Of a stretch of 64,000 nt of DNA, positions 46,552-61,515 are shown in pieces. The stretch spans positions 1 through 64,000 of the forward strand of contig JBIPSI010000012.1 in assembly GCA_044070495.1 (NCBI GenBank). Direction: 5' to 3'. The DNA is from Spirulina sp. (GTDB taxonomy: Bacteria; Cyanobacteriota; Cyanobacteriia; Phormidesmidales; Phormidesmidaceae). Below the pieces are notes generated by a model. It was not told where the DNA came from and searched no databases. It saw only the letters and a program-made list of their open reading frames with translations. Position 1 is the first letter of the stretch. The number at the start of each line of letters is the position of its first letter. The position numbers were made by a program, and so were the translations under genes.

Positions 46552-47361
46552 CTAAAGGGGGGGCGTCTGCGTTTGGGTTTGCATTGATGGCGTCGTTTTC
46601 CGAGACCGCCCCCAGCCCCATCGCCGCCCGATGACCATCGCCCCAATTACCAAAAGACCAGCGGCACTGTGCATTTCAAAGGGAACGGCCTGGGCCTGGG
46701 CATCCCTTAAGTTAATGCTCGGATCTTGACCCAGGTTGGCCGTGGTAAAAATCGCCCTAAAGTTTTCCACGCCAACATCAATGGCGATGATGCCGTCGTT
46801 AAAGTCGTTGTCACTGCCGCGACCAGCGATATCTTCATAGCCCAGCAAAATGATGGGTCTGGTCGCCTTAGGATCCGCGTAAGCCGTCCAGAAAATCGGA
46901 CTGTTGGGATTGTAAGGATCGGTCGGGTTAAGGGTGTAGTCCGTACTTAAGGGCGCTCTACTGGAACTAACGACACCATTGGGGGTGACCGAAAAGTGAA
47001 GCTGAGTTCCCGCCTGAATTTCCGACATCTGCACCCAGTCGCCCACCCGTAGCGGAGCATTGCTACTGGGCAGAATGCTATTGCTACCCGACAGGTTAGA
47101 AAATACCGTGACTTCGCCCGTGGTAGCGCCCGCCGCCGTCATCGAAACCGGAGACTGATAGCCCGCCCCTTCATTAATAAAGGCAATACGGGGAGCGTAG
47201 TTATAGGGCAGATACAGATCGCTACTGTCGATCAGCCAGAGATTGCTGTCTGTCAGGTTAAGCGAAACCCGCTCCTGGGTGCCTAAGTTGGAATATTTCG
47301 TCAGGTCAAACCAGGTAGAACCGGGTACATAGCTTTGGATAGGGCCAACGGATAGAGACAT
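46552..47361 (-). CDS. PEP-CTERM-type (PFE variant) sorted surface protein
   Basis: C-terminal VPFE + TM + RR; GYED...SDNDFND acidic (DUF4114-like) motif. Confidence 0.8.
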   Translation of the reverse strand: MSLSVGPIQSYVPGSTWFDLTKYSNLGTQERVSLNLTDSNLWLIDSSDLYLPYNYAPRIAFINEGAGYQSPVSMTAAGATTGEVTVFSNLSGSNSILPSSNAPLRVGDWVQMSEIQAGTQLHFSVTPNGVVSSSRAPLSTDYTLNPTDPYNPNSPIFWTAYADPKATRPIILLGYEDIAGRGSDNDFNDGIIAIDVGVENFRAIFTTANLGQDPSINLRDAQAQAVPFEMHSAAGLLVIGAMVIGRRWGWGRSRKTTPSMQTQTQTPPL

Positions 47362-47412
47362 AGGTGGGTGGGGTGGTGGGGTGATGGGTGGTGGGGTGGT
47401 GGGGTGGTGGGG

Positions 47413-47436
47413 CCGTAGGGTGGGCACTGCCCACCA
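47413..47436 (+). repeat. GTAG-REP hairpin GTAGGGTGGGCAntGCCCACC; further copies near 48317, 48347 and 63409
   Basis: Four near-identical copies read directly. Confidence 0.85.
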
Positions 47437-47480
47437 GCTTTAATTCATGGAGACTGAAGCCTCAATTCAACGATCTGGCC

Positions 47481-48221
47481 TTAAGGCTGAGCCACAGGTC
47501 GGCGACGACGCCACCAGCCGCTGCGGCGCACGATGACAATAGCCCCAAGGGTGAGCAGCCCCAGACTGGTGTGAAGTTCAAAGGGAACGGGTTTCACCTC
47601 TCCAGGGATGTCCGGGGTGCCGTCCAATCCGCCCGTGGTTGGCGTACCAGAACCACCGCCATCTCCGGTGCCGACACCATCTCCCCCATCGGTAATCGAC
47701 GGGTCATCCGTGCCGCCCCCCGTGAAGCTGCCGGTGGATCCGGTACCCGATGTTGTGGTGCTGGTTCCAGAGGTACCCCCGAAATTCGTCAGAGTCGTCG
47801 GACTCAAACCGCCGCCGCTATTAGAAATCAGCGTAGCGCTGCTCTGGGTGCCGCCCTGCACCTCCAGGAGAGGCGAACCGTCACTGAGCTGTAGGGCAGA
47901 ACTGTTGGTGTACAAAACACTGTCGGCGGTCGGGGTGCTGCCGTAGATGGTGACGTTGCCCGTGGTTGAGGCCATGGTGGTCGAGGCCATCGGGGCCAGA
48001 TAGCCCTCGGTATCCGTTGTCGGGCTAGCGGAATACAGGGCCAGTAGGCTTAGATCGTCAGTACTGCTCTGCTTTAAGGCCGTGCTGTCCACCAGCCAGA
48101 GATTGCTGTCTGACAGACTGAGGGACTCTCGTTCATCGGTGCCTAGGTTGCCGTACTGGGTTTCATAAAACTCAGTGGAGCCGGGAACGTAGGTTTCAAT
48201 GGTGCCAACGGATAGGGTCAT
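47481..48221 (-). CDS. Second PFE-CTERM protein (paralog with Gly/Thr/Ser-rich linker)
   Basis: N-terminus paralogous to the neighbour (LSVG.I..YVPGST...Y.NLGT.ER.SL.L.DSNLWL.DS); VPFELHTSLGLL...WWRRRR tail. Confidence 0.78.
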   Translation of the reverse strand: MTLSVGTIETYVPGSTEFYETQYGNLGTDERESLSLSDSNLWLVDSTALKQSSTDDLSLLALYSASPTTDTEGYLAPMASTTMASTTGNVTIYGSTPTADSVLYTNSSALQLSDGSPLLEVQGGTQSSATLISNSGGGLSPTTLTNFGGTSGTSTTTSGTGSTGSFTGGGTDDPSITDGGDGVGTGDGGGSGTPTTGGLDGTPDIPGEVKPVPFELHTSLGLLTLGAIVIVRRSGWWRRRRPVAQP

Positions 48222-48227
48222 GGGTGA

Positions 48228-48310
48228 GGTGAAGGGTGAAGGGTGAAGGGTGAAGGGTGAAGGGTGAAGGGTGAAGGGTGAAGGGTGAAGGGTGAAGAGT
48301 GAAGAGTGAA
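48228..48310 (+). repeat. Heptamer tandem repeat (GGGTGAA)n
   Basis: About 11-12 units; degenerate inverted copies near 50070-50105. Confidence 0.9.
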
Positions 48311-48405
48311 GAAGCCGTAGGGTGGGCACTGCCCACCAGAAGAAACCGTAGGGTGGGCAGTGCCCACCAGCCTTAATTCATGGTGATTTGACGTTCCCCC
48401 TGGGG

Positions 48406-50111: not shown

Positions 50112-50957
50112 ATGACAGATCCCCCCTTCACCTTCATCCCAATCCCTGTGCCACAAAGGATTGCTTTTCTAGGTCTGGGCCTAGTGGGTCTGCATATCGC
50201 TTTAATCGTCAGTGTCACGGGCAATGCCGATCAGGTGGTGTTGAGCCTGCTGTTTTGGGGAGCCATCGCCGACCAAGTCCGTCAGGGTGGCCCACTTCGG
50301 TGGGCGCGATCTCCCCTCGCTCGGATATTGGGCCTTGCACTGCTGGGTCTCCTTGGCCTGAAGTCCTTACCGATCCCCGCAACGGAATCGGCCTTTGTGA
50401 GGCTGTTTCCGTTGTTGGCCTTGGTGGGGTGGTCGCTGCTAGTGCGCCAGGGGAAAAACGGCCACGGCTGGAAGGTTTGGGCCTTAGTCGTGGCGCTCTC
50501 GGTGCCCCCCAGGGCGTTGCCGCTCGTTTTAGAAACGGTTTTGGATAGGCCGATCCGGGGGGCGACGGCGGCAGCAGCGGCCTTTGGCCTGCATTTTCTA
50601 GGATTCGATGTGGCGCAGCAGGGGACTTTCATCCAACTCCCTAGCGGCACCGTGGAGGTAGAGTTTGCCTGCACCGGGGCCGCTCTGCTGGGACTACTCC
50701 TACAGGTTTCGGTGCTGCTCGCCGTGGTGACAGCCTGGGCCAAGATCAGAGGGTTGATCCTGGGGTCGGTGGCCATTGCGGCCCTACTCAGCACCGTGCG
50801 CGTCGCCATTATGGCAGCGGTAGTGGGGAATGAAGCCCTCTTCCAGTTCTGGCATGGGTCTAGCGGGGGGCAACTGTTCACCCTCATCGCCCTAGCCATC
50901 CTCAGCTACAGAACCCTTGGGAAAGACGAACGATGGGCGACCCACAACGGTAGGTAG
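50112..50957 (+). CDS. Cyanoexosortase A-like exosortase
   Basis: Cys (VEFACTG), Arg (TVRVAIM) and His (FWHG) triad; multi-TM. Confidence 0.85.
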   Translation: MTDPPFTFIPIPVPQRIAFLGLGLVGLHIALIVSVTGNADQVVLSLLFWGAIADQVRQGGPLRWARSPLARILGLALLGLLGLKSLPIPATESAFVRLFPLLALVGWSLLVRQGKNGHGWKVWALVVALSVPPRALPLVLETVLDRPIRGATAAAAAFGLHFLGFDVAQQGTFIQLPSGTVEVEFACTGAALLGLLLQVSVLLAVVTAWAKIRGLILGSVAIAALLSTVRVAIMAAVVGNEALFQFWHGSSGGQLFTLIALAILSYRTLGKDERWATHNGR

Positions 50958-51167: not shown

Positions 51168-52472
51168 CTATAAGTCTGTCACCAGCCAGAGTCTTCTGGC
51201 CAGACCCTTCAAAAAGGTCTCCCGTTGGGTGACGATATCGGCTCGACCCAACATCCCGGCTTGCAAGTGACAGGTGTGGTTAGCCGCTGGCAGCGCACTT
51301 GTTTGGGGTGCAATTTCGGCCCAATAGAATGGAAGGGTCTTGGCTGAACTAGGATCTGGGCTTTCCGTTTCCGTATCCGGAGCAATGGCCATTACCTGTC
51401 CATGCAGAACACCGTAGTCTGTGTAAGGGCAACTATCGATTCTCACGTTGACCTGCTGTCCAACCTGGACTCGACCCGCATCGGCCTGACTAACTTGGGC
51501 CTGGATAATCAACGCGACATTCGAGGGCGCAATTTGGGCAATGACATCTCCAGCTTGCAAGACCTGGTTTGGATTGCGCAGGTTAAGGGACTGAATGGTG
51601 CCGGTAACGGGAGCCTGCACGACCAACCGGGCTAATTCCAGGTTCACTTGCTGGAGGGTTTGCTGCTGGGATTGAATCTGCTGCTCTAGTTCGGCCTGCT
51701 GGCGGGTTAGTGCCTGCTGCGTCTGGCGCAGGTTAGCCAGGGTAGACTCCCCTCTGGCCTGGGTTTGCCGCATTTCCTCCTCAGCTTGCTCAATAGCGGC
51801 AGCACTAGGATTGATCCGGCCTCGGGTTCGATCCAATCGAGCCAGAGCCGTTTCTAAGGCCGCTTCTTTTTCTTTAAGCTGTAGGTCAGCCAGTGCCCCG
51901 GTATTGGCTAACTGGCGGTAGCGGTTGAGTTCTTCCTGGGCAAACTGCATGGCAGCATTCGCTTCTCGCAGGTCGGCGGCAGTGGTAGCTTGTTGTTCGC
52001 GGTAGTTGCGCTGGCGGAGGTCAAGCTGGGCCTGGGCGGCTGCAATCGCACCTTCAGCCGCCCTTGTCTCTGCCTGAATCTGGCTGTCGAGGACAACCCG
52101 CTCTTGCTGAATGTGCTGCTGCTGCCGCTGAAGCTGGTCGAGTTCGGCCTGGATCTGCTGCTGGCGCGATCGCACCTCGGCATCATCGAGCACCACCAGC
52201 GGATCTCCCTGCTGGACTTCATCGTTGGCTGTCACCAAAATTTGCCGTACCGGCCCGGTTGCAGTTGACTCCACAATCCGCAGGTCGCCTTCGGGACGGA
52301 CAACGGCGGGGGCTTTGACGGTAACGTTGTATTTGAGCAGGGCGGAGAGTGCGATCGCGCTGCCGAAGATGCCGACCAAGGCCAATCCTCCCAGCCTCGA
52401 CCAATGAGAAACACGCGGCAAAAACTCATCTGCATCAACTAAAGAGAGTCGTATTGATTGAGTCGTCTTCAT
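51168..52472 (-). CDS. hlyD: HlyD-family type I secretion membrane fusion protein
   Basis: N-terminal TM, lipoyl-like halves (GPVRQILV / APVTGTIQ), long coiled coil, PYTDYG. Confidence 0.92.
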   Translation of the reverse strand: MKTTQSIRLSLVDADEFLPRVSHWSRLGGLALVGIFGSAIALSALLKYNVTVKAPAVVRPEGDLRIVESTATGPVRQILVTANDEVQQGDPLVVLDDAEVRSRQQQIQAELDQLQRQQQHIQQERVVLDSQIQAETRAAEGAIAAAQAQLDLRQRNYREQQATTAADLREANAAMQFAQEELNRYRQLANTGALADLQLKEKEAALETALARLDRTRGRINPSAAAIEQAEEEMRQTQARGESTLANLRQTQQALTRQQAELEQQIQSQQQTLQQVNLELARLVVQAPVTGTIQSLNLRNPNQVLQAGDVIAQIAPSNVALIIQAQVSQADAGRVQVGQQVNVRIDSCPYTDYGVLHGQVMAIAPDTETESPDPSSAKTLPFYWAEIAPQTSALPAANHTCHLQAGMLGRADIVTQRETFLKGLARRLWLVTDL

Positions 52473-52582
52473 CCGATTCTCTTCATTAAAATCGGTTTTT
52501 AGAAATCTTCGATTCAGCGTAAAAAGTGAAGTCAAGATTCTTGCAGACTGGTGCAGCAGAGCAAAGTATCAAGACAGCTATT

Positions 52583-52918
52583 CTAAGAGGTTTTACATGG
52601 AGTTCCTGTAGCTCTACAACGCCAAAGCCCAGCTCTTTTATAGCAGTCGTCAGAGGTTTTGTTGATTGCACAAGTCCAATTAGCGAAGTCTTTACCAGCG
52701 GCAATACGGACACGACTACGCCATTTTATGCGTGCAAATAGTCTTGCGGTTGACTTTCTGAAAGCACGACCAGTAGCCCCTGTCACTGGCCATAAACAAG
52801 TGTTGGTACACGCGGAGGGTTGTATACTTGATTCACCCTTTAGAAATATCGATTCACTTAAAGGTGCTGTGTTCAGGTCATCTCGCAGGATAGGACTAGA
52901 TTGTGCGGGTATTTTCAT
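52583..52918 (-). CDS. Cys-containing putative precursor with PatB-like N-terminus
   Basis: MKIPAQSSPILR...IQPS then ACTNTC; five Cys in the putative core. Confidence 0.75.
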   Translation of the reverse strand: MKIPAQSSPILRDDLNTAPLSESIFLKGESSIQPSACTNTCLWPVTGATGRAFRKSTARLFARIKWRSRVRIAAGKDFANWTCAINKTSDDCYKRAGLWRCRATGTPCKTS

Positions 52919-52974
52919 GGACGTCTTCCTCACGGCATTAAAATAAATTTGTTCAGCTCAGCGCACAAAGTAAT

Positions 52975-53087: not shown

Positions 53088-53363
53088 TCATTGATTAGCT
53101 CTCTTTGCGCAATCGTCCCGAGAGCCACCTTCTGGCCCAAACCTGCACCACAAAAATCTGGCGATTCTCCCTCCTCCCGGTTTTACTCTTTGTCCTGCCG
53201 CCGCTTCTTCAATCTCTTCGATTGAGAGCTGTTGCCGAGGCAAAAATTCCTCGATCTCTTCAATTGAAAACTCTTCCTGTGGCAACAGCCCGCGCAAAGT
53301 GTTAATTCTTGACGTAAGCACATCTTTACGAAGGCTTGCCTTGGATTGCATCGGAATTCTCAT
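53088..53363 (-). CDS. Putative precursor with PatB-like N-terminus and duplicated acidic segment
   Basis: MRIPMQSKASLR...GLLPQ; SIEEIEE twice; two Cys. Confidence 0.72.
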   Translation of the reverse strand: MRIPMQSKASLRKDVLTSRINTLRGLLPQEEFSIEEIEEFLPRQQLSIEEIEEAAAGQRVKPGGGRIARFLWCRFGPEGGSRDDCAKRANQ

Positions 53364-53431: not shown

Positions 53432-55363
53432 TTACCTCACGAACCACGATCGCACTCTCCCAACATTTACTGGACAAACATCACTCACGTCAACTGTAAA
53501 GCGATAGCATTTTCTGGCTTGTTCAAACACTCGTTGGGGATGAAAAAACGTTAGCTTCACATCCCAACAATCGGCTCCGGGGCGGCAGAGGGGACTTTTC
53601 TCCACATCAATCGATTCCAGATCGATTTCTTCATTCATGGCCGACTCAAAAATGCGTTCAATGTTGAAGGCATTGGTGGCGGCATAGTTGATGGCTCGCT
53701 CTTGGGGCGTAATTCCAAAATTGCGTAGTTCGTAGTAGACCCTGTCCAGAAAATTGGTCACTCCCTGCACCGCCGCCTCATCGGGTTCACTGCCACATAC
53801 CGCTTCGACTAGGGCCGAAGTGGTCCAGCTATACATGCAGCGGAGGGTCGGCAAAATGACCGGAACGACCTGTCCCGACATCAGCATGGCCTGTCCAGAG
53901 ATGATGCCAGGAATGGAAACCCGTTCAACGCCTTCTTCGATCTGTTCCCGCAGGAACTGACGCAACCGCCCAAAGCCCTGTTCCGCATAGGCTCCCTGGG
54001 GCATCACGACATAGATGGGGGTGGCATTCAGGCTCAGGGTCCAGAGGATGTCGGCGGCATCCCAGGGATCGGTATTGAGGTGTTGCAGCAGTTGTTGCGG
54101 GTCATTGGGATTAGCCCCTTCTCCCATGTGTTGCTGAATGGAGTCGCGGCGTGCTTCGGTGGCAAAGTCGTAGCCCAGCGTGCCCAATGCATAGACGAGT
54201 TGGGCAGGAGCACCGCCTCCCCCTTCACAACTACAGGCCGCAGGCTGTACGGCACTGGGGCTAATTTGAGTGGGGGACTGAGGAGACCGGGGCAGATCGG
54301 GCTCTAAGACTGCAACCTCGGCGGGAGCAGGACTGTAGCTGGCGGCCTGGATGGCGGCACGCGGTTGGGGCATGGGAGACGGTGATGCTTGTGCCGTATC
54401 TGGGGCTAGTTGGTTGGTTTGTAGATCTGTGGTTTCACTCATGGAGGTTCCTGGTGAACGAAGAATAGATAGGGCTCCTTGGATGTTGAGACGCCCTGCC
54501 AGCAGGCGATCGCACTCCTCAATGGGTTGGTCATCGCAGGTGATCGCACTCTGTAAAATGGCAGCTTTAATTGCTTTGGGGTCAGGGCGCTGGCCTTGTT
54601 TGACTTGCAGGCTCAAGAGCAGGGCGGCCACCCCAGACACAATGGCTGTGGCATAGCTAGTTCCGGTTTGGGGAGCGGTTTCGCCTCCCGGTACTGCGCC
54701 AACAATGTCCTGGCCAAGGGCTAAAATGCCTTGAGTTCGGTACTTTTCACCCCAGTTGCTAAAATCTAAGGGTTTGCCCTCGCTGTTCATGGCACCCACC
54801 GCCAAAACCGATGGCATCGCACCCGGAATGTGGAGACAATCGCAGCCGTCGTTGCCCACTGCGGACACAATTAAGATGTTTTGGTCGGTGCAATGGCGCA
54901 CGGCATTGGTGAGTAACAGATCGGCTTCGCCACTAGGGGTGAGTTGTCCCCCGCTGATGTTGATGACTTGTGCTCCCTGATTAGCCGCCGTGAGTATGGC
55001 TCTGGCTAAATCCACTTGAGAACAAGGGGTTAGAGAACCATCCTGACCATCGGTGAAGATAGGAATCGACAAGCCTCGACAATGGGGAGCGATTCCCTGT
55101 ATGTCTCCGTGATGCTGCCCTAGGATGATGCTGGCAACGTGAGTGCCGTGATACATAGCAGCCCCAGGGCTGGAACGATTGATTCCGAGGGCATTGGACA
55201 GGGTAATGTCGGCTTTTGCCAGATGGGGATGGGCGCGATCGCACTCCCCATCCAGAATCGCGATCAGAACATCCTCACAGCCCAGGGTAATATCCCAGAG
55301 ATCCTGTAAGCCGGGAATTCTAGAGGCAATAGTTGTGTTGGCAACGGGGGTGGTTGAAGACAC
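53432..55363 (-). CDS. PatA/PatG-family S8 (cyanobactin-type) protease with C-terminal PatG domains
   Basis: IAILDG, HGTHVAS and GTSYAT catalytic triad; INISGG; LVYALGTLGYDF..EARRD; ERAINYAATN; FTVDVSD. Confidence 0.92.
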   Translation of the reverse strand: MSSTTPVANTTIASRIPGLQDLWDITLGCEDVLIAILDGECDRAHPHLAKADITLSNALGINRSSPGAAMYHGTHVASIILGQHHGDIQGIAPHCRGLSIPIFTDGQDGSLTPCSQVDLARAILTAANQGAQVINISGGQLTPSGEADLLLTNAVRHCTDQNILIVSAVGNDGCDCLHIPGAMPSVLAVGAMNSEGKPLDFSNWGEKYRTQGILALGQDIVGAVPGGETAPQTGTSYATAIVSGVAALLLSLQVKQGQRPDPKAIKAAILQSAITCDDQPIEECDRLLAGRLNIQGALSILRSPGTSMSETTDLQTNQLAPDTAQASPSPMPQPRAAIQAASYSPAPAEVAVLEPDLPRSPQSPTQISPSAVQPAACSCEGGGGAPAQLVYALGTLGYDFATEARRDSIQQHMGEGANPNDPQQLLQHLNTDPWDAADILWTLSLNATPIYVVMPQGAYAEQGFGRLRQFLREQIEEGVERVSIPGIISGQAMLMSGQVVPVILPTLRCMYSWTTSALVEAVCGSEPDEAAVQGVTNFLDRVYYELRNFGITPQERAINYAATNAFNIERIFESAMNEEIDLESIDVEKSPLCRPGADCWDVKLTFFHPQRVFEQARKCYRFTVDVSDVCPVNVGRVRSWFVR

Positions 55364-55407
55364 GGGTTGACTCTAAGAGAGGGGGCGATCGCAGCAGCCT
55401 TAGCTTT

Positions 55408-55614
55408 CTAAAAAAGCAAAATAAACGACCACGTAGCAAAAGACTGTGATCCCTTTAAGGCCAAGGAATTTTTCTCGTGAGCCCACGGGATACTGCTATC
55501 TCCACCACCGCTGATATGAGTTGATTCTTGATCAGTCAAATCGCGAATATAACTGCTGGAATGTTTTTGGAGAGCAGTGACATTATTAGATTTAGGCGTT
55601 TGTCGGGGTTGCAT
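55408..55614 (-). CDS. Double-Gly leader peptide P9
   Basis: IRDLTDQESTHISGG / GDSSIPWAHEK...; GGAGG RBS. Confidence 0.8.
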   Translation of the reverse strand: MQPRQTPKSNNVTALQKHSSSYIRDLTDQESTHISGGGDSSIPWAHEKNSLALKGSQSFATWSFILLF

Positions 55615-55645
55615 TATCTATTTCCTCCAGATATTGATTGGAATC

Positions 55646-55924
55646 TCACCAAAGCAACGTGCCTCGAATTACGCCACCTTTGTTGGCTTGTCTTAAGGGA
55701 CTCAATTCGGCTTGAAATTCTTCTCGAAGTCGAACATGTGGTGTTGTTGAATACTCCCTCCCACTATCTACTTGAGTAACAACCTTAGTAAAAGCGTCAA
55801 ACATACCGCCTCGGATGTCACCTTGAGTAGTTTCGGGCATTTCTTCCCAGAGATGGCTATTTTGGCTTTGCGGATGCTTGAAGTTTTGAGGTTTAATTAC
55901 CGAGTTTTTGCAGAAAAATTTCAT
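55646..55924 (-). CDS. Double-Gly leader peptide P8 (core starts like phycocyanin beta)
   Basis: LWEEMPETTQGDIRGG / MFDAFTKVVTQVDSGREY... Confidence 0.85.
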   Translation of the reverse strand: MKFFCKNSVIKPQNFKHPQSQNSHLWEEMPETTQGDIRGGMFDAFTKVVTQVDSGREYSTTPHVRLREEFQAELSPLRQANKGGVIRGTLLW

Positions 55925-56020
55925 CACTAACCATCCTTGACAAACTAGCAAATTCTCAGCCGAACAACTGAACTGCCGAGGAGTCCCTGAAGTCGTTTTT
56001 AAGGTTATGCGATCGCACGG

Positions 56021-56284
56021 CTACTGGATGAGATGGGTTAGCTCATGGGCAAGGAGATTGCGACCAACAGAAACTGTGCCACCTCTTCCAGGACCATCGG
56101 AGGGGAACCTGAAGCCCAGATCACTAACTTCAGGTAAGGTGGAAAACAGTAGGATAGTGCCTCGGATTTCCCCACCTGCGTAGGCTTGCATTTGGTCTTC
56201 TGTCAAGTCTGTGGTTCCAATGGCAGACAGCGGATCTAACGAATTTGGATGTTGTGAAATTGAGTTTCTGGTTTTCTTGAACAT
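56021..56284 (-). CDS. Double-Gly leader peptide P7 (PsaA FX-loop-like and DUF4157-like motifs)
   Basis: DLTEDQMQAYAGG / EIRGT...LGFRFPSDGPGRGGT...GRNLLAHELTHLIQ; AAGGAG RBS. Confidence 0.87.
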   Translation of the reverse strand: MFKKTRNSISQHPNSLDPLSAIGTTDLTEDQMQAYAGGEIRGTILLFSTLPEVSDLGFRFPSDGPGRGGTVSVGRNLLAHELTHLIQ

Positions 56285-56339
56285 GAATGACTCCTTATGT
56301 AATCACTTTTCGGCAAGATAATCCCGGAAAGTGTAGGTA

Positions 56340-56540
56340 TTAGCCTCCTCCGATGCCAAGACCAAGGCCAACAGCACCTTTGTTCTTGGTGGAAGACCGA
56401 TCTAATTCTGCTGTTATAAAAATCAAAGAAAGTGCAATTGTTGCACCTCCTTCAAGAGTTCTTGATTGCTCGTCATTTAATTCTTGAAAGAGAGCAGGAT
56501 TAATCTGGGTACGCTTGGACTTTTGATTGGAAGAATCCAT
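56340..56540 (-). CDS. Double-Gly leader peptide P6
   Basis: LFQELNDEQSRTLEGG / ATIALSL...; AGGAG RBS. Confidence 0.85.
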   Translation of the reverse strand: MDSSNQKSKRTQINPALFQELNDEQSRTLEGGATIALSLIFITAELDRSSTKNKGAVGLGLGIGGG

Positions 56541-56575
56541 TTTCCAATTCTCCTGAGGTTTAGTGATTTTCTGTT

Positions 56576-56854
56576 TTACTGCGGTCTTGGCATTGCAGAA
56601 ACAAAGGGCAGTCGGGTGAAGAAGGTTGGGGCTTCAGCGACAACCGCATCGCCACCAAGATCAAAGATAAGGCAATCAACAATAGAGCCACTAGGTTCGT
56701 CAAAGATAGCAGAGTTCTCTGAAGGTTGATTCAGCGCGAAGATCACAGCTTTGCTAACGCCGCCTGCTAAGGTTCCTGACTGTTCATCGGTCAGAGGTTG
56801 TAGCAAGTTGAGATTGATCTGGTTGAGATTGGGTTGTTGATTAGGAGAAATCAT
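56576..56854 (-). CDS. Double-Gly leader peptide P5 (Walker-B-like and DnaK-like motifs)
   Basis: LLQPLTDEQSGTLAGG / VSKAV...IFDEPSGS...LIFDLGG. Confidence 0.85.
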   Translation of the reverse strand: MISPNQQPNLNQINLNLLQPLTDEQSGTLAGGVSKAVIFALNQPSENSAIFDEPSGSIVDCLIFDLGGDAVVAEAPTFFTRLPFVSAMPRPQ

Positions 56855-56861
56855 TGAAGAA

Positions 56862-57047
56862 TTACCCTCCTATTCCTAATCTGCCAGACAAACTCGATGT
56901 GGCTTGTGCAGGAATATAGGCGAAGGGATTGGCAAAGAGCAGCGGCCCGCCACCCGATATGGACTGCGACTGACTACTATCAAGTGATTCCCATAATTGA
57001 CTGTTTTTGAATTGCGGCTTAGGTGGTTTAGGTGGGTAATATTTCAT
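56862..57047 (-). CDS. Double-Gly leader peptide P4
   Basis: LWESLDSSQSQSISGG / GPLLFANPF...; GGAGG RBS. Confidence 0.85.
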   Translation of the reverse strand: MKYYPPKPPKPQFKNSQLWESLDSSQSQSISGGGPLLFANPFAYIPAQATSSLSGRLGIGG

Positions 57048-57118
57048 GGTTTTACCTCCATTAAACAAGCGTATTTATTTAGATTGGAACATGTCGGAAA
57101 TCGAGATATGGGAATATT

Positions 57119-57274
57119 TTACTCATACCCACCAACGTTTATATGGGGTTTGGTTGTTTCCCATCTAGTCTTTCCTCCAGCCGAAATAGTCTGTGACTGA
57201 TCTGTGTTTAGAGGTTGCCACAGTTGATCGTTTTGAAGTTGTAGCTTAGCTGATTTCGGTGAATGATGTTTCAT
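57119..57274 (-). CDS. Double-Gly-type leader peptide P3 (51 aa, not in the ORF track; EF-Tu-like core)
   Basis: My translation: MKHHSPKSAKLQLQNDQLWQPLNTDQSQTISAG / GKTRWETTKPHINVGGYE*. Confidence 0.85.
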   Translation of the reverse strand: MKHHSPKSAKLQLQNDQLWQPLNTDQSQTISAGGKTRWETTKPHINVGGYE

Positions 57275-57366
57275 GGTTTTGGCTCTATAGAACTATGTGA
57301 GTAGGCAGTGGTTAGTAAATGCTGCGAAGCCAACCATGATATTGGCTTCTTTTCGTTTTATGTAGT

Positions 57367-57564
57367 CTATGCCTGACGTCCTGGCCCATCACAGGGGAAT
57401 GATGAAAAGCCAAAATCTTTTTTGGGCGGTTCAGCACGAGCAAAAGGATTGGCAAATAGCAACACTCCACCTGAGATAGACTGTGACTGCTCTGGGGTGA
57501 GGGGCTGCCAAGGCGCAGCCTTTGAAGACTGAGCGTTAGTCGATTTGCGATGGTGATATTTCAT
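57367..57564 (-). CDS. Double-Gly leader peptide P2 (PsaB FX-loop-like motif)
   Basis: PWQPLTPEQSQSISGG / VLLFANPF...KKDFGFSSFPCDGPGRQA. Confidence 0.87.
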   Translation of the reverse strand: MKYHHRKSTNAQSSKAAPWQPLTPEQSQSISGGVLLFANPFARAEPPKKDFGFSSFPCDGPGRQA

Positions 57565-57597
57565 GATTTTGCCTCAATACAACAAAGACTTAGAGAG

Positions 57598-57679
57598 TAG
57601 ACCTCCTGCATAAATGCTTTTTAGGGGTCATGAGTCGTTGCGCGGCTCCGCCGCGCAACGATATCATGCAGGAAGTCTA
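57598..57679. mobile_element. MITE-like element with TA-flanked inverted ends and an internal hairpin
   Basis: TAGACCTCCTGCAT ... ATGCAGGAAGTCTA; internal TCGTTGCGCGG/CCGCGCAACGA stem. Confidence 0.7.
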
Positions 57680-57967
57680 GTGAGTATCAACCTCTAACTT
57701 GACTAGTTAGAGAGTGTTCAGAACCATGTCCTAGAGCCTCTGAACTCTCGTTTTAGAATTGGAGTCTCGACGAAATTCTTGCTCGGGAGTGTTCATGGTT
57801 TTGTGGGATAGCCGTCTCGGCTGTCCCCTTAGGAACAGGCCAGAGGCCCATCCCACAAGACCTTTAGGAGTTGGGCCTAATTTGTCTGTCAAAATTTACA
57901 CAAAAAACCGATCACTCTCCTTGTTCCCCATTCAGCTAGGTTCTCCCTGTTTCCGAACTACAACCAA

Positions 57968-58147
57968 TTACAATCCAGGGGGCAGCATGTCATAGCTATT
58001 CCAAATGGTGCATCCTTTTTCGGTGCAGACTGTTCTGAGATCAATCTTACGCCCACCATAAATTTTGGTACTTTGTTGATCGCTCAGTGGCGTTAACAGC
58101 ACATTATTGTTGATAGCTTGTGACCGATTAGGGGATATTAAGTTCAT
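57968..58147 (-). CDS. Double-Gly leader peptide P1 (59 aa, not in the ORF track)
   Basis: My translation: MNLISPNRSQAINNNVLLTPLSDQQSTKIYGG / RKIDLRTVCTEKGCTIWNSYDMLPPGL*; AAGGAGG RBS at about 58153-58159. Confidence 0.85.
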   Translation of the reverse strand: MNLISPNRSQAINNNVLLTPLSDQQSTKIYGGRKIDLRTVCTEKGCTIWNSYDMLPPGL

Positions 58148-58471
58148 TTTGACCTCCTTAAACGACTTAATCTATAGCTCAACCCTAAGCAATATCATTG
58201 AGTTTGTCTTGCACAGTTCTGCGATCGCTGCACATTCTTGCCGCGAGTTAACAAAACTTTATCTGAGCTTTGCGGAGAACTGCAGGCAATGGACGCAGGT
58301 ACTTCTAGGAGCAGACTCAAAGCCTGAAGCAATCTTGAGGCTCTGATAATTAGCTTGACCTTTGGCTACCCAAGACTCTATAAGAGCACTAGCTAGGTCG
58401 ATACAGACCGCTTGTAGTAGCGTAGGAACATATAAATCGAATCAGTCGAAAAGGAGAGCGGGAGTTGAGCC

Positions 58472-59371
58472 ATGTCTTTGCAGCAATCGCAGTCCTCTGT
58501 TACTGCGATATCAAATCGACTGACAGATGTCCTTGAACCCAACCCAACCCTACATAGCCATCACACAGGTTGGCGAAGTATTACGCTAGAGACTTTTGAT
58601 CTGGCGGCTGGAGAGACCTCTGAATATTGCTTGAAACATCACGTCGTGAGTATTCATACTGGGCCAGAAGCAGGGGTTCGCTTGAGGCGAATAACTGAAA
58701 ATCAGTGCGAGGAAGCAACATTATCATTAGGATCGGCGGCAATTTGTCCGACTCACCGTCCCCACTTTTTTGAGTTGAATGGTAATTCTAAAGCCCTCTG
58801 CCTGAATCTCAAGCCCGATCTGCTGCACTCCCATGCTACGGAACTGTTTGGTCGCGATCGCGTAGAGTTACTTCCCAAAATGGGCATTCAAGATGGCTTG
58901 ATTTACCAACTTGGCCTAGCCCTGCAGACAGATCTATGTAGGCAAGCTAATTCCGATCGCCTCTATGCTGAGGCCTTAGCAACGACGCTAGCACTCCATC
59001 TCTTAAGGCATTACTCCACCTTTGGCGATCGTTATCCTACCTGCAAAGGAAAACTGTCGCCGAAAAAGCTGAAGCTTGTCACTGACTATATCAACGACAA
59101 TTTAGCCAGGGAACTAAGTTTAAAAGAACTGGCTGTGATCACTCAATTGAGCCAGCATCATTTCTGCCGTACATTTAAGCGTTCTACTGGTCTAAGTCCC
59201 CATCAATATGTGATTCGACAACGGGTAGAACGCGCCAAACGATTGCTTAAGCAGGGTTCAATGCCCCTGGCAGACATTGCCATAAGCTGTGGCTTCAACC
59301 ATCAGAGTCATCTCCATCGCCATTTCAAGCGACTGACCGGGGTCACACCTCTAAACTGGCTAGATTCATGA
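58472..59371 (+). CDS. AraC-family transcriptional regulator
   Basis: C-terminal double HTH (HFCRTFKRSTGLSPHQY...CGFNHQSHL..HFKRLTGVTP); divergent from the peptide array. Confidence 0.93.
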   Translation: MSLQQSQSSVTAISNRLTDVLEPNPTLHSHHTGWRSITLETFDLAAGETSEYCLKHHVVSIHTGPEAGVRLRRITENQCEEATLSLGSAAICPTHRPHFFELNGNSKALCLNLKPDLLHSHATELFGRDRVELLPKMGIQDGLIYQLGLALQTDLCRQANSDRLYAEALATTLALHLLRHYSTFGDRYPTCKGKLSPKKLKLVTDYINDNLARELSLKELAVITQLSQHHFCRTFKRSTGLSPHQYVIRQRVERAKRLLKQGSMPLADIAISCGFNHQSHLHRHFKRLTGVTPLNWLDS

Positions 59372-61515
59372 GGACTTACCCCTGCGTCCAACAACATAGT
59401 GAAGAAGACTGTGGTGCAGCCTGTCTCGCAACGATTGCCAAGCACTACGGGCGCACCCTCTCGATTAGCCGCATTCGTGAAGCCGTAGGCACTGGGCAAC
59501 TCGGCACCACCCTGCTAGGGCTCCGACGCGGGGCCGAAACCCTGGGCTTCGATGCCCGTCCGGTCAAAGCCTCTCCAGAACTGATTGACCAACTGGAATC
59601 AGCCCCACTGCCTGCCATCATCCACTGGAAGGGCTACCACTGGGTGGTGCTATACGGTCAACGGGGGAAACACTATGTCATCGCCGATCCAGGGGTGGGG
59701 GTGCGCTACCTGTCTCGCCGGGAGTTGACCGAAGCCTGGGGTAACGGCGTCATGCTGCTGCTGGTGCCCGATGAGTCACGTTTCTCCGCCCAACCCAACG
59801 ATCAGGTGAAAGGCTTCAGTCGCTTTTTGGGGCGGGTGTGGGCCTATCGTGGAATTCTGTCAGAGGCGCTGCTCCTCAATCTCGTCATCGGCCTGCTGGC
59901 CCTGGCCCTGCCCCTGGTGATTCAGATTCTCACCGATGACGTGTTGGTACGGCGCGATGCCGATTTGCTCACCACAGTGGCCTTAGGAGCCCTGGCGCTG
60001 ATCGGCTTCAGTAGCCTGCTGCAACTGATTCAGGGCAACTTGATCGCCCATTTTGCCCAGCGGCTAGAGCTGGGGTTAGTGCTCGACTTTGGGCGGCAAC
60101 TGCTGCGTCTACCGATGCACTATTACGAATCGCACCGCAGCGGCGAGATCGTCAGTCGTCTGCGCGATATTCGTGAGGTGAATTTCCTGGTGTCGCAGGT
60201 GGTGATTAGCCTACCCAGCGAGTTTTTTATTGCCCTGGTGTCGCTGGGGTTAATGGTGATCTATAGCTGGCAGCTCACCCTGGCGGCGCTGGCGATCGCC
60301 GTGCTGATGACTCTGCCCAGCCTGCTGTTTTTCCCGACGTTGCAGCGTAAAACCCGCGATGTGCTGGTCACCGAAGCCGAAAACCAGGGGATTTTGGTGG
60401 AAAACTTTAAGGGGGCTATGACCCTGAAAACCAGCCATGGTGCTCCCCAAGCCTGGGATGAGTTGCAGGGTCGCTTTGGCCGGTTAGCCAACGTCACCTT
60501 TCGCACCGTGCAGATTGCCATTTGGAACAGCTTCACCTCTAGCTTGGTGTCAGGGATGGGGGCGATCGCCATTCTCTGGTTTGGCGGCTGGTTGGTGATT
60601 CAGCAGCAACTCACCATTGGTCAACTGCTGGCGTTTAACGCTCTTTATCGCTACGTCACCGGTTTTGTGGGCACCGTCATTCGCTTTATCGATGAATTCG
60701 CCCGCGCCAAAACCGCCATGCAGCGCCTAGGCGATATCATCGATGCCCCGCCCGAAACCCCAGCCGATGCGGCTAAACCCTGGGTTGAGATTGCCGACGA
60801 TGGCGATATTACCTGTATTGATGTCACCTTCCACCATGCGGGCAGAGTAGACTTGCTGAAAGACTTTTCCCTGACGATTCCTGGCGGCAAAGTCACCGCT
60901 ATTATCGGCAAGTCAGGCTGTGGCAAAAGTACTCTGGCCAAGCTCATCGCCGGGCTCTACACACCTCATTCTGGCAACATCCGCTTTGATAAATATAACC
61001 AGAGTGACTTGGCTCTCGACTGCCTTCGCCAGCAAATTATTCTTGTCCCCCAAGAGCCTCACTTTTGGAGCCGTTCCATCTTTGAAAACTTTCGCCTCAG
61101 TTACCCCTATGCGAATTTTGAAGACATTATCACGGCCTGCGAAGTCACCGGAGCGGACGAATTCATTGGTCAATTGCCAGATAAGTACCAAACGGTGCTC
61201 GGTGAGTTTGGCGTTAATCTGTCGGGAGGACAGAAACAACGGCTGGCGATTGCCCGCGCTCTAATCACCAATCCTCCGATTCTGATTCTGGATGAATCAA
61301 CGGGCGCTCTCGACCCAGCCAGCGAAGCAGAGGTTCTAGAACAGGTGATTGCTCACCGTTACGGTAAAACCACCCTGATGATTAGCCACCGTCCTCAGGT
61401 AGTTCAAAGAGCAGATTGGATTATTTCTCTGGCATCTGGCCAACTTTTGTCGATGGGTACCTTAGCTGATCTTTGTAAACAGCCTGGAATCCATACTGAA
61501 TTTATCAGCCGCTAG
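59368..61515 (+). CDS. Peptidase-containing ABC transporter (C39 + TMD + ATPase)
   Basis: QHSEEDCGAACL (catalytic Cys), HWVV...IADP, GKSGCGKS, LSGGQKQR; ATGA overlap with araC. Confidence 0.95.
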   Translation: MRTYPCVQQHSEEDCGAACLATIAKHYGRTLSISRIREAVGTGQLGTTLLGLRRGAETLGFDARPVKASPELIDQLESAPLPAIIHWKGYHWVVLYGQRGKHYVIADPGVGVRYLSRRELTEAWGNGVMLLLVPDESRFSAQPNDQVKGFSRFLGRVWAYRGILSEALLLNLVIGLLALALPLVIQILTDDVLVRRDADLLTTVALGALALIGFSSLLQLIQGNLIAHFAQRLELGLVLDFGRQLLRLPMHYYESHRSGEIVSRLRDIREVNFLVSQVVISLPSEFFIALVSLGLMVIYSWQLTLAALAIAVLMTLPSLLFFPTLQRKTRDVLVTEAENQGILVENFKGAMTLKTSHGAPQAWDELQGRFGRLANVTFRTVQIAIWNSFTSSLVSGMGAIAILWFGGWLVIQQQLTIGQLLAFNALYRYVTGFVGTVIRFIDEFARAKTAMQRLGDIIDAPPETPADAAKPWVEIADDGDITCIDVTFHHAGRVDLLKDFSLTIPGGKVTAIIGKSGCGKSTLAKLIAGLYTPHSGNIRFDKYNQSDLALDCLRQQIILVPQEPHFWSRSIFENFRLSYPYANFEDIITACEVTGADEFIGQLPDKYQTVLGEFGVNLSGGQKQRLAIARALITNPPILILDESTGALDPASEAEVLEQVIAHRYGKTTLMISHRPQVVQRADWIISLASGQLLSMGTLADLCKQPGIHTEFISR

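Follow-up and report, generated by a model that had tools for sequence, protein, structure and literature searches.

A double-glycine leader precursor of Spirulina sp. with a predicted core that begins like the N-terminus of phycocyanin beta

Results

The P8 gene, its leader and the predicted cleavage site

Peptide P8, encoded on the minus strand at 55646..55924 of a 64,000-nt stretch of Spirulina sp. DNA (hereafter the window), is a precursor with a double-glycine (GG) leader, and the core behind that leader begins with a look-alike of the N-terminus of C-phycocyanin beta (CpcB). The look-alike, module 1 of the core (residues 1-18), occupies 55751..55804 (-), exactly the 18 codons following the GG. 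It translates to MFDAFTKVVTQVDSGREY directly after ...GDIRGG, and the motif thus begins at +1 after the double Gly, as had been read from the sequence earlier. From its first in-frame ATG the P8 ORF (92 codons plus stop; 92 aa, the same protein as P0001) reads MKFFCKNSVIKPQNFKHPQSQNSHLWEEMPETTQGDIRGG and then MFDAFTKVVTQVDSGREYSTTPHVRLREEFQAELSPLRQANKGGVIRGTLLW. An SD-like AAGGA lies at 55934..55938 (-), 9 nt 5' of this ATG, and TCAAGGA is also present 5' of the P8 ortholog in a MAG labelled Elainellales (L034; G115 and G069 are the same genome with the same peptides), which was reached via the neighbouring S8 protease and is called the Elainellales MAG below.

The leader of 40 aa (55805..55924, (-)) ends I(-4)-R-G-G and carries M at -12 and W at -15; residue -7 is Q, and the siblings are likewise polar at this position. 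It can be aligned with 15 sibling leaders (alignment A1, 16 leaders), in which GG is the sole invariant or near-invariant pair of columns and the first GG of P8 falls on that pair. Against the leader HMM the P8 leader scores 54.7 bits. The parts of the LahT study that concern cleavage (PMC6363468) describe a C39 domain that cleaves at GG, recognises its leader by hydrophobic residues at -4/-7/-12 and places no restriction on the P' sequence. Because the GG of P8 coincides with the invariant GG of its siblings, and because a C39 exporter with the Cys/His/Asp pattern is encoded 3.4 kb away, a cut after G40 is the expected processing and would free Met-Phe-Asp-Ala-Phe... as the N-terminus. The sequence-only reading, by which GG cleavage would expose the N-terminus of phycocyanin beta, is thus backed by the leader alignment, the nearby C39 exporter and the junction in homologues. 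The core has 52 aa, a predicted average mass of 5936.7 Da and 0 Cys. A second GG is found at core residues 43-44 and, with this GG and an S8 protease encoded next door, the final N-terminus of P8 could differ.

Likeness to the start of phycocyanin beta

The host genome has 12 phycobilisome-family matches and one C-phycocyanin beta gene, cpcB, at L002 1042..1560 (-) on G000:C10 (TIGR01339, 319 bits; cut-off 279). Host CpcB starts MFDAYTKVVSQADARGDF. Module 1 of P8 shares 10/18 residues and 38/54 nt with it (29/33 nt over the first 33 bases), and 5' of the ATG the two show no visible likeness; this is the DNA comparison with host cpcB that had been proposed as a check. The CpcB consensus given in the sequence-only reading proved right, since the CpcB starts of 10/10 relatives read MFDAFTKVVSQADARG(D/E)(F/Y). 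Identity of the P8 module to the EY-form starts is 13/18. Among CpcB-type starts gathered elsewhere, 23/33 begin MFDAFTKVV, in a set that is biased by 18 loci chosen as best profile matches.

In a six-frame local search of the host genome with the P8 core the top match was CpcB at 26.2 bits, a score equalled by 16/100 shuffled cores and therefore not significant alone. As this score was unusable by itself, an anchored comparison was used instead, with the 18-mer aligned ungapped and end to end against 145,139 candidate N-termini of the host genome. CpcB ranked first at 56, followed by 34 and then 30, the latter an allophycocyanin-beta-like start; 0/1000 shuffles attained 56, the highest reaching 49. 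The match between P8 and CpcB is significant when anchored end to end, and the earlier statement that the core starts like CpcB holds. Additionally, a profile built from three P8-type junctions (A2) matches true CpcB-type starts in a further 153 of the 173 family genomes searched, always from the model M onward.

Neither P8 nor its core belongs to a Pfam or NCBIfam family. P8 as a phycobiliprotein was rejected on the lack of any PF00502/TIGR01339 match and on the 0 Cys in the core; by the missing Cys and PF00502 match the bilin-binding parts are absent from P8, as had been claimed. A related peptide from genome G223 matches TIGR01339 only at model positions 1-17. A complex prediction of host CpcA with the P8 core returned a score of 0.00 and no verdict.

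Homologues and distribution of the junction

Homologues lacking the motif at +1 had been named as a ground for refuting the sequence-only reading, and by this test the reading is not refuted. The junction of GG with M(F/L)DAF is present in six distinct peptides, being kept in the ortholog of the Elainellales MAG (L034/G115), in G223 and in proteins P0003, P0004 and P0009. The Elainellales MAG carries the same array, and its P8 ortholog (L034 9431..9709) is 88% identical to P8, with core residues 1-22 identical. The G223 peptide reads ...DIPETTQSRIQGG, followed across the junction by MFDAFTKVVVQADARGEF and then a stop, so its core is exactly the 18-mer. This genome was among the 21 in which the A1 leader profile found matches when searched over 401 genomes of the class. 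The A2 profile, run against 1.84 billion proteins, gave 21 matches at E <= 0.001, and 11 of the 21 were inspected. P0002 is a G223-type peptide; P0003, P0004 and P0009 continue after GG with MFDAFTKVVSQADAR..., MLDAFTRVVSQSDA... and MLDAFSKVVSQSD..., respectively; P0018 has a P8-type leader and a core like the ATP synthase c loop; and six of the 11 are CpcB starts or fragments without GG. Across alignment A3 GG-M is invariant (7/7), and the M(F/L)DAF... module comes next in 6/7. A contig from sequencing run X4 spans the P8 region, and its module differs by 3 synonymous and 1 nonsynonymous changes (by reading).

A word-indexed protein search with P8 (50-161 aa) gave P8 alone, and P8 was found neither in the genomes of 41 relatives nor in 52 other genomes of the genus (0/52), both of which gave weak matches to CpcB starts alone. 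A metagenome pattern scan for GGNGGN plus MFDAFTKVV had 0 matches. The full junction occurs in 2/173 genomes of family f1 (the window's genome included) and in 1/57 genomes of family f16, that of the Elainellales MAG, so that the P8-type element is rare and patchy.

The surrounding gene cluster

P8 is the eighth gene in an array of nine GG-leader precursor genes at 55408..58147 (-). The other eight, all on the same strand, are P1 (57968..58147), P2 (57367..57564), P3 (57119..57274), P4 (56862..57047), P5 (56576..56854), P6 (56340..56540), P7 (56021..56284) and P9 (55408..55614). Downstream lie an S8 protease of the PatA/PatG cyanobactin-maturation family (53432..55363, (-); PF00082, PatG_D and PatG_C; TIGR03895 736 bits, cut-off 421) and a HlyD-type membrane fusion protein (51168..52535, (-); PF13437). 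An AraC-family regulator (58472..59371, (+); PF12833, PF00165) is divergent from the array, and is followed by a peptidase-C39 ABC exporter (PCAT; 59368..61515, (+); PF03412, PF00664 and PF00005). The N-terminal part of the exporter shows ...DCGAAC..., ...YHWVVL... and ...IADP..., and the Cys/His/Asp pattern is kept. Two small ORFs that separate the protease from HlyD, 52583..52933 and 53088..53363, were considered as genes and set aside; they are probably not genes, since they are not conserved in the Elainellales MAG.

The C39-ABC and AraC genes also adjoin related arrays in G223, G146 and G080, with HlyD in G146 and G080, and the Elainellales MAG has an ORF of 299 aa in the position of the window's AraC, matched to it by size and position alone. 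Next to the G223, G146 and G080 arrays, a scan of ORFs of at least 180 aa in the fetched stretches found no S8 protease. The GG array is absent at 8/10 related protease loci (plus-strand ORFs upstream of the protease screened, L041 left out). No modification enzyme other than the S8 protease was found in the P8 cluster, and no YcaO heterocyclase in the 97%-complete host genome.

Further along the window, 46552..48329 (-) and 50112..50957 (+) hold paralogous ORFs of 291 and 282 aa with a C-terminal hydrophobic stretch followed by basic residues, and a multi-pass membrane ORF lies near them. We take the pair and the membrane ORF to resemble a sorting-signal/sortase-type pair.

Further modules in P8 and in sibling cores

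The CpcB likeness is limited to core residues 1-18, and the remaining core of P8 copies other proteins. Module 2 (55691..55732, (-); core residues 25-38, RLREEFQAELSPLR) is a look-alike of an OprB-family porin linker, 11/14 identical to the segment RLQEEFQAELATLR of host OprB protein L091, identified as PF04966 (Pfam). Module 3 (55652..55675, (-); core residues 44-51, GVIRGTLL) is a look-alike of the loop and helix 2 start of ATP synthase c, 7/8 identical to GKIRGTLL of host AtpH (PF00137). Each score was attained by 0/500 shuffles. The second GG of P8 belongs to the ATP synthase c-like module (host EGKIRGTLL).

Sibling cores are built along similar lines. The P2 core, VLLFANPFA...KKDFGFSSFPCDGPGR, copies the C-terminus of host ATP synthase c (AtpH) and then the PsaB FX-loop region (both modules 0/300 shuffles; 0/100 in a genome-wide test), and its ortholog in the Elainellales MAG ends ...KDFGYSFPCDGPGRGGTC, 19/21 (90.5%) identical to host PsaB. 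The P7 core starts with the ATP synthase c-like EIRGTILLF, continues with a PsaA-type FX loop, FPSDGPGRGGTV (region matched by the PF00223 HMM, E 1.4e-4), and ends GRNLLAHELTHLIQ, which resembles the HExxH motif found in host eCIS-core (PF13699) proteins. Both cluster-binding cysteines of the FX loop are replaced in P7, and P7-type peptides from G115, G146 and G142 show these replacements as well. In P3 and in L034 9061..9276, the core residues right after GG copy EF-Tu 3-16 or 3-17; the N-terminal region of EF-Tu is an immune elicitor in some plants. P4 copies the AtpH C-terminus. The host genome itself has two psaA-psaB pairs on separate contigs (G000:C22:20227-24690 and G000:C30:836-5447), with near-equal HMM scores.

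Related arrays add the S10 N-terminus, porin C-termini and further PsaA/B segments. Short single-module cores occur in arrays L078 (G223:C113), L080/L081 (G146), L082 (G080:C19) and L051 (G142) and include the S10 N-terminus, porin C-termini ending ...RATFRF at the peptide end, the PsaB FX loop (17-aa core) and the eCIS-core motif (17-aa core); the AtpH C-terminus is the entire 10-aa core in G223 and G146. Copies of termini keep their register. CpcB residues 1-18 correspond to core residues 1-18 in 3/3 cases, EF-Tu 3-16/17 to core 1-14/15 in 2/2 and S10 7-17 or 7-24 to core 3-13 or 3-21 in 3/3, while porin C-termini coincide with the core C-terminus in 2/2 and AtpH C-terminal copies stand at the peptide end in 3/6.

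Taken over six genomes, 25/38 cores match one of ten host proteins at <= 1/300 shuffles and 13/38 match none of the ten; the ten sources, identified by Pfam or NCBIfam, were picked after matches were seen, so the 25/38 figure is descriptive and not a test. The count of 38 excludes GG-leader peptides of other class-level matches, e.g. L052, L056, L057, L059, L061, L062, L067 and L068. The cores of P1, P5, P6 and P9 have no match among the ten source proteins. Cores of the P1 type, with two Cys and the ending ...YDMLPPGL, are conserved in G000 (the window's genome), G115 and G080, and those of the P6 type in G000, G115 and G146. A PsaC origin of P1-type cores is unsupported, 47-77% of 1000 shuffles scoring as high.

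Selection and transfer

Comparison of P8 between the window and the Elainellales MAG gives 13 synonymous and 12 nonsynonymous changes (dN/dS 0.22). Of these, the 18 CpcB-like codons account for 2 synonymous and 0 nonsynonymous changes and the 40 leader codons for 6 and 7, respectively (dN/dS 0.22). P8 is a real gene under purifying selection. Five orthologous peptides pooled (363 codons) give a dN/dS of 0.33, and the neighbouring S8 protease 0.15.

Between G000 and G223 the first nine module codons show 4 synonymous changes and no nonsynonymous one (by reading). Set against real CpcB/cpcB, the G223 module has 16/18 aa and 40-41/54 nt in common, so it is the peptide sequence that is kept and not the DNA. 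The P8 copy of the Elainellales MAG shares 33/54 nt with the cpcB of its own genome. Recent DNA capture from host cpcB was rejected as an origin of the P8 module, with 38/54 nt identical and no likeness 5' of the ATG, as was adenine-specific diversity-generating mutagenesis from cpcB to P8, the differences (by reading) not being limited to A.

At its start, each producer's own CpcB departs from the module. Those of the Elainellales MAG and G223 start MLDAFAKVV, and position 5 of host CpcB is Tyr, where 8/8 congeners examined and all 33 starts gathered elsewhere have Phe; P8 retains Phe at this position, unlike its producer's CpcB. The P8 peptide does not track the CpcB of its producer.

The cluster as a whole (53432..61515) is far closer between the window's genome and the Elainellales MAG than are the genomes themselves. 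The protease is 90% identical at the protein level with dS ~0.3, against 73% identity for the hosts' CpcB, and the two genomes come from separate families. Such a discrepancy suggests that the cluster spread by horizontal transfer.

Discussion

We favour, with moderate confidence, a reading of P8 as the precursor of an exported GG-leader peptide that belongs to a modular family of protein-segment copies acting by mimicry. The 40-aa leader would dock in the C39 peptidase domain of the ABC exporter encoded nearby, be cut after Gly40, and the 52-aa core (5936.7 Da) would leave by the ABC/HlyD route. The freed peptide would begin with the copy of C-phycocyanin beta residues 1-18 and then carry the OprB-porin linker and ATP synthase c loop copies. 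Family cores appear to be put together from short copied pieces, taken where abundant cyanobacterial proteins are most conserved, with N-terminus copies placed directly after GG and porin and some AtpH C-terminal copies at the peptide end. Such peptides would be built from copies of conserved protein segments and probably act by mimicry. That the copies are the active principle, directed at other cyanobacteria or at the producer's own population, is put more weakly; the most likely mode would be putative competitive interference with the partners of CpcB, photosystem I, ATP synthase or porins.

More tentatively, and with somewhat less than balanced confidence, the array could represent an undescribed class of exported 'proteome-copy' peptides that keep termini in register, are spread horizontally and serve as decoys against competitors or as counterfeit lysis or stress cues. 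Their source segments would be the most conserved parts of the most abundant machines, from phycocyanin, photosystem I and ATP synthase to EF-Tu, ribosomal protein S10 and the major porins. A CpcB start that differs from the module in 3/3 producers of the CpcB module would fit a weapon aimed at others.

The strongest competitor, though an unlikely one, regards the cores as captured-fragment raw material, i.e. recombined pieces of cpcB, psaA/B, atpH, tuf, rpsJ and porin genes, in which any membrane-active or signalling bacteriocin activity is independent of the resemblance. Genes for CpcB, PsaA/B, AtpH, EF-Tu, S10 and porins are abundantly expressed, and it speaks for random capture that the sources are all among the most abundantly expressed genes. 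Modules are also shuffled, the CpcB module standing alone in G223 and being joined in the window to modules of porin and AtpH, and the portion of Wang et al. 2011 (PMC3140520) dealing with such clusters describes frequent rearrangements, truncations and insertions and little core conservation. However, amino acids are kept while the DNA drifts (16/18 aa against 40-41/54 nt in G223, and in the window-MAG comparison of the module 2 synonymous against 0 nonsynonymous changes), the same modules persist across genomes of four families, and protein termini stay in register, as would not be predicted from random capture.

In a second, quite improbable alternative, the peptides imitate breakdown fragments of abundant cell proteins, as a lysis or envelope-stress cue, and are sensed by producers or neighbours with the AraC regulator in the circuit. 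Free termini in register, N-terminal copies after GG and porin/AtpH C-terminal copies at the peptide end are what such a signal would look like, and the exporter has an AraC regulator beside it in G000, G223, G146 and G080 (in G115 by the size and position of the 299-aa ORF). Internal segments, namely the FX loops and the porin linker, are copied too, which argues against breakdown termini as the thing imitated.

Maturation by a different route is given a similarly low probability. P8 could be cut at the second GG (core residues 43-44), leaving VIRGTLLW, be trimmed by the S8 protease encoded directly downstream, or arise as a cytoplasmic 52-mer from an internal start at Met41, whose ATG has GAGG 4 nt 5' of it. 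The second GG, though, is preceded by N(-4), R(-7) and E(-12) and is part of the AtpH-like module; no S8 protease was found by the G223, G146 and G080 arrays (ORFs of at least 180 aa scanned); the G223 core stops right after the 18-mer; and the leader itself is constrained, with the dN/dS of 0.22 over its 40 codons. Chance resemblance or a non-coding stretch, for which the six-frame score equalled by 16/100 shuffles and the word-indexed search (50-161 aa) that returned P8 alone could be cited, is exceedingly improbable and is refuted, as far as sequence evidence goes, by the anchored test (0/1000 shuffles), the junction in six distinct peptides and the dN/dS of 0.22.

GG-leader clusters are common in cyanobacteria, and their cores have so far been treated as unrelated and unexplained; here they become readable as copies of protein segments. 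If the copies are the active principle, they would represent a new logic of microbial antagonism or signalling via natural interfering peptides, would supply ready tools for probing or inhibiting the assembly of phycobilisomes, photosystem I, ATP synthase and porins, and could offer leads toward selective cyanobacterial control. Even as raw material alone, the array shows new peptide genes arising by the shuffling of existing gene fragments.

Comparison with known systems

The closest known systems are the cyanobacterial 'group VI' bacteriocin clusters, which the relevant section of Wang et al. 2011 (PMC3140520) defines in part by an S8-peptidase protein. The P8 cluster is like them in its GG leaders, precursors in a row, C39-ABC exporter, HlyD and S8-peptidase protein, and unlike that section's account of them in that P8-family cores are mosaics of conserved housekeeping and photosynthesis protein copies; the word 'photosystem' is absent from the main text of that paper. 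P8 as a member of the CTB family of bacteriocins (NF038167, cut-off 32 bits) was rejected, there being no match for P8 and, in the array, a weak one of 13.9 bits for P5 alone.

The LahT/LahA system, as set out in the sections of PMC6363468 on its peptidase and precursors, likewise pairs one exporter with an array of precursors that have related leaders and unrelated cores; its LahT150 C39 domain and nine diverse precursors show GG cleavage with any P' residue tolerated. It differs from P8 in having Nif11-type leaders and lanthipeptide-type cores and in coming from a Firmicute.

With cyanobactin pathways the P8 cluster shares the PatA/PatG-family S8 protease, which scores above the NCBIfam cut-off. 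Unlike these pathways and their PatE-type precursors, its precursors have GG leaders and a C39 exporter, and no YcaO was found; P8 as a PatE-type cyanobactin precursor was rejected, the protease being present and YcaO not found in the 97%-complete genome.

Compared with C-phycocyanin beta itself (TIGR01339 / PF00502), P8 core residues 1-18 run in register from the initiator Met, whereas P8 lacks the globin-like domain and the bilin-binding Cys and differs from its producer's CpcB at 8/18 positions. As a concept, the nearest parallel is that of beta-signal peptides and BAM, for which the part of PMC10945584 on these peptides describes short copies of a terminal segment that engage the assembly machinery of that protein. 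Those are laboratory peptides or protein parts, whereas P8-family peptides are separate, putatively exported gene products; porin C-terminal copies stand at the peptide end in related arrays, and P8 itself is without a porin C-terminal module.

A literature search, with most subscription journals outside its range, returned no description of cores that copy PsaA/B, CpcB, AtpH or EF-Tu. Clusters of this type and the logic of their export are already known; the reading of the cores as copies is new and extends within the family.
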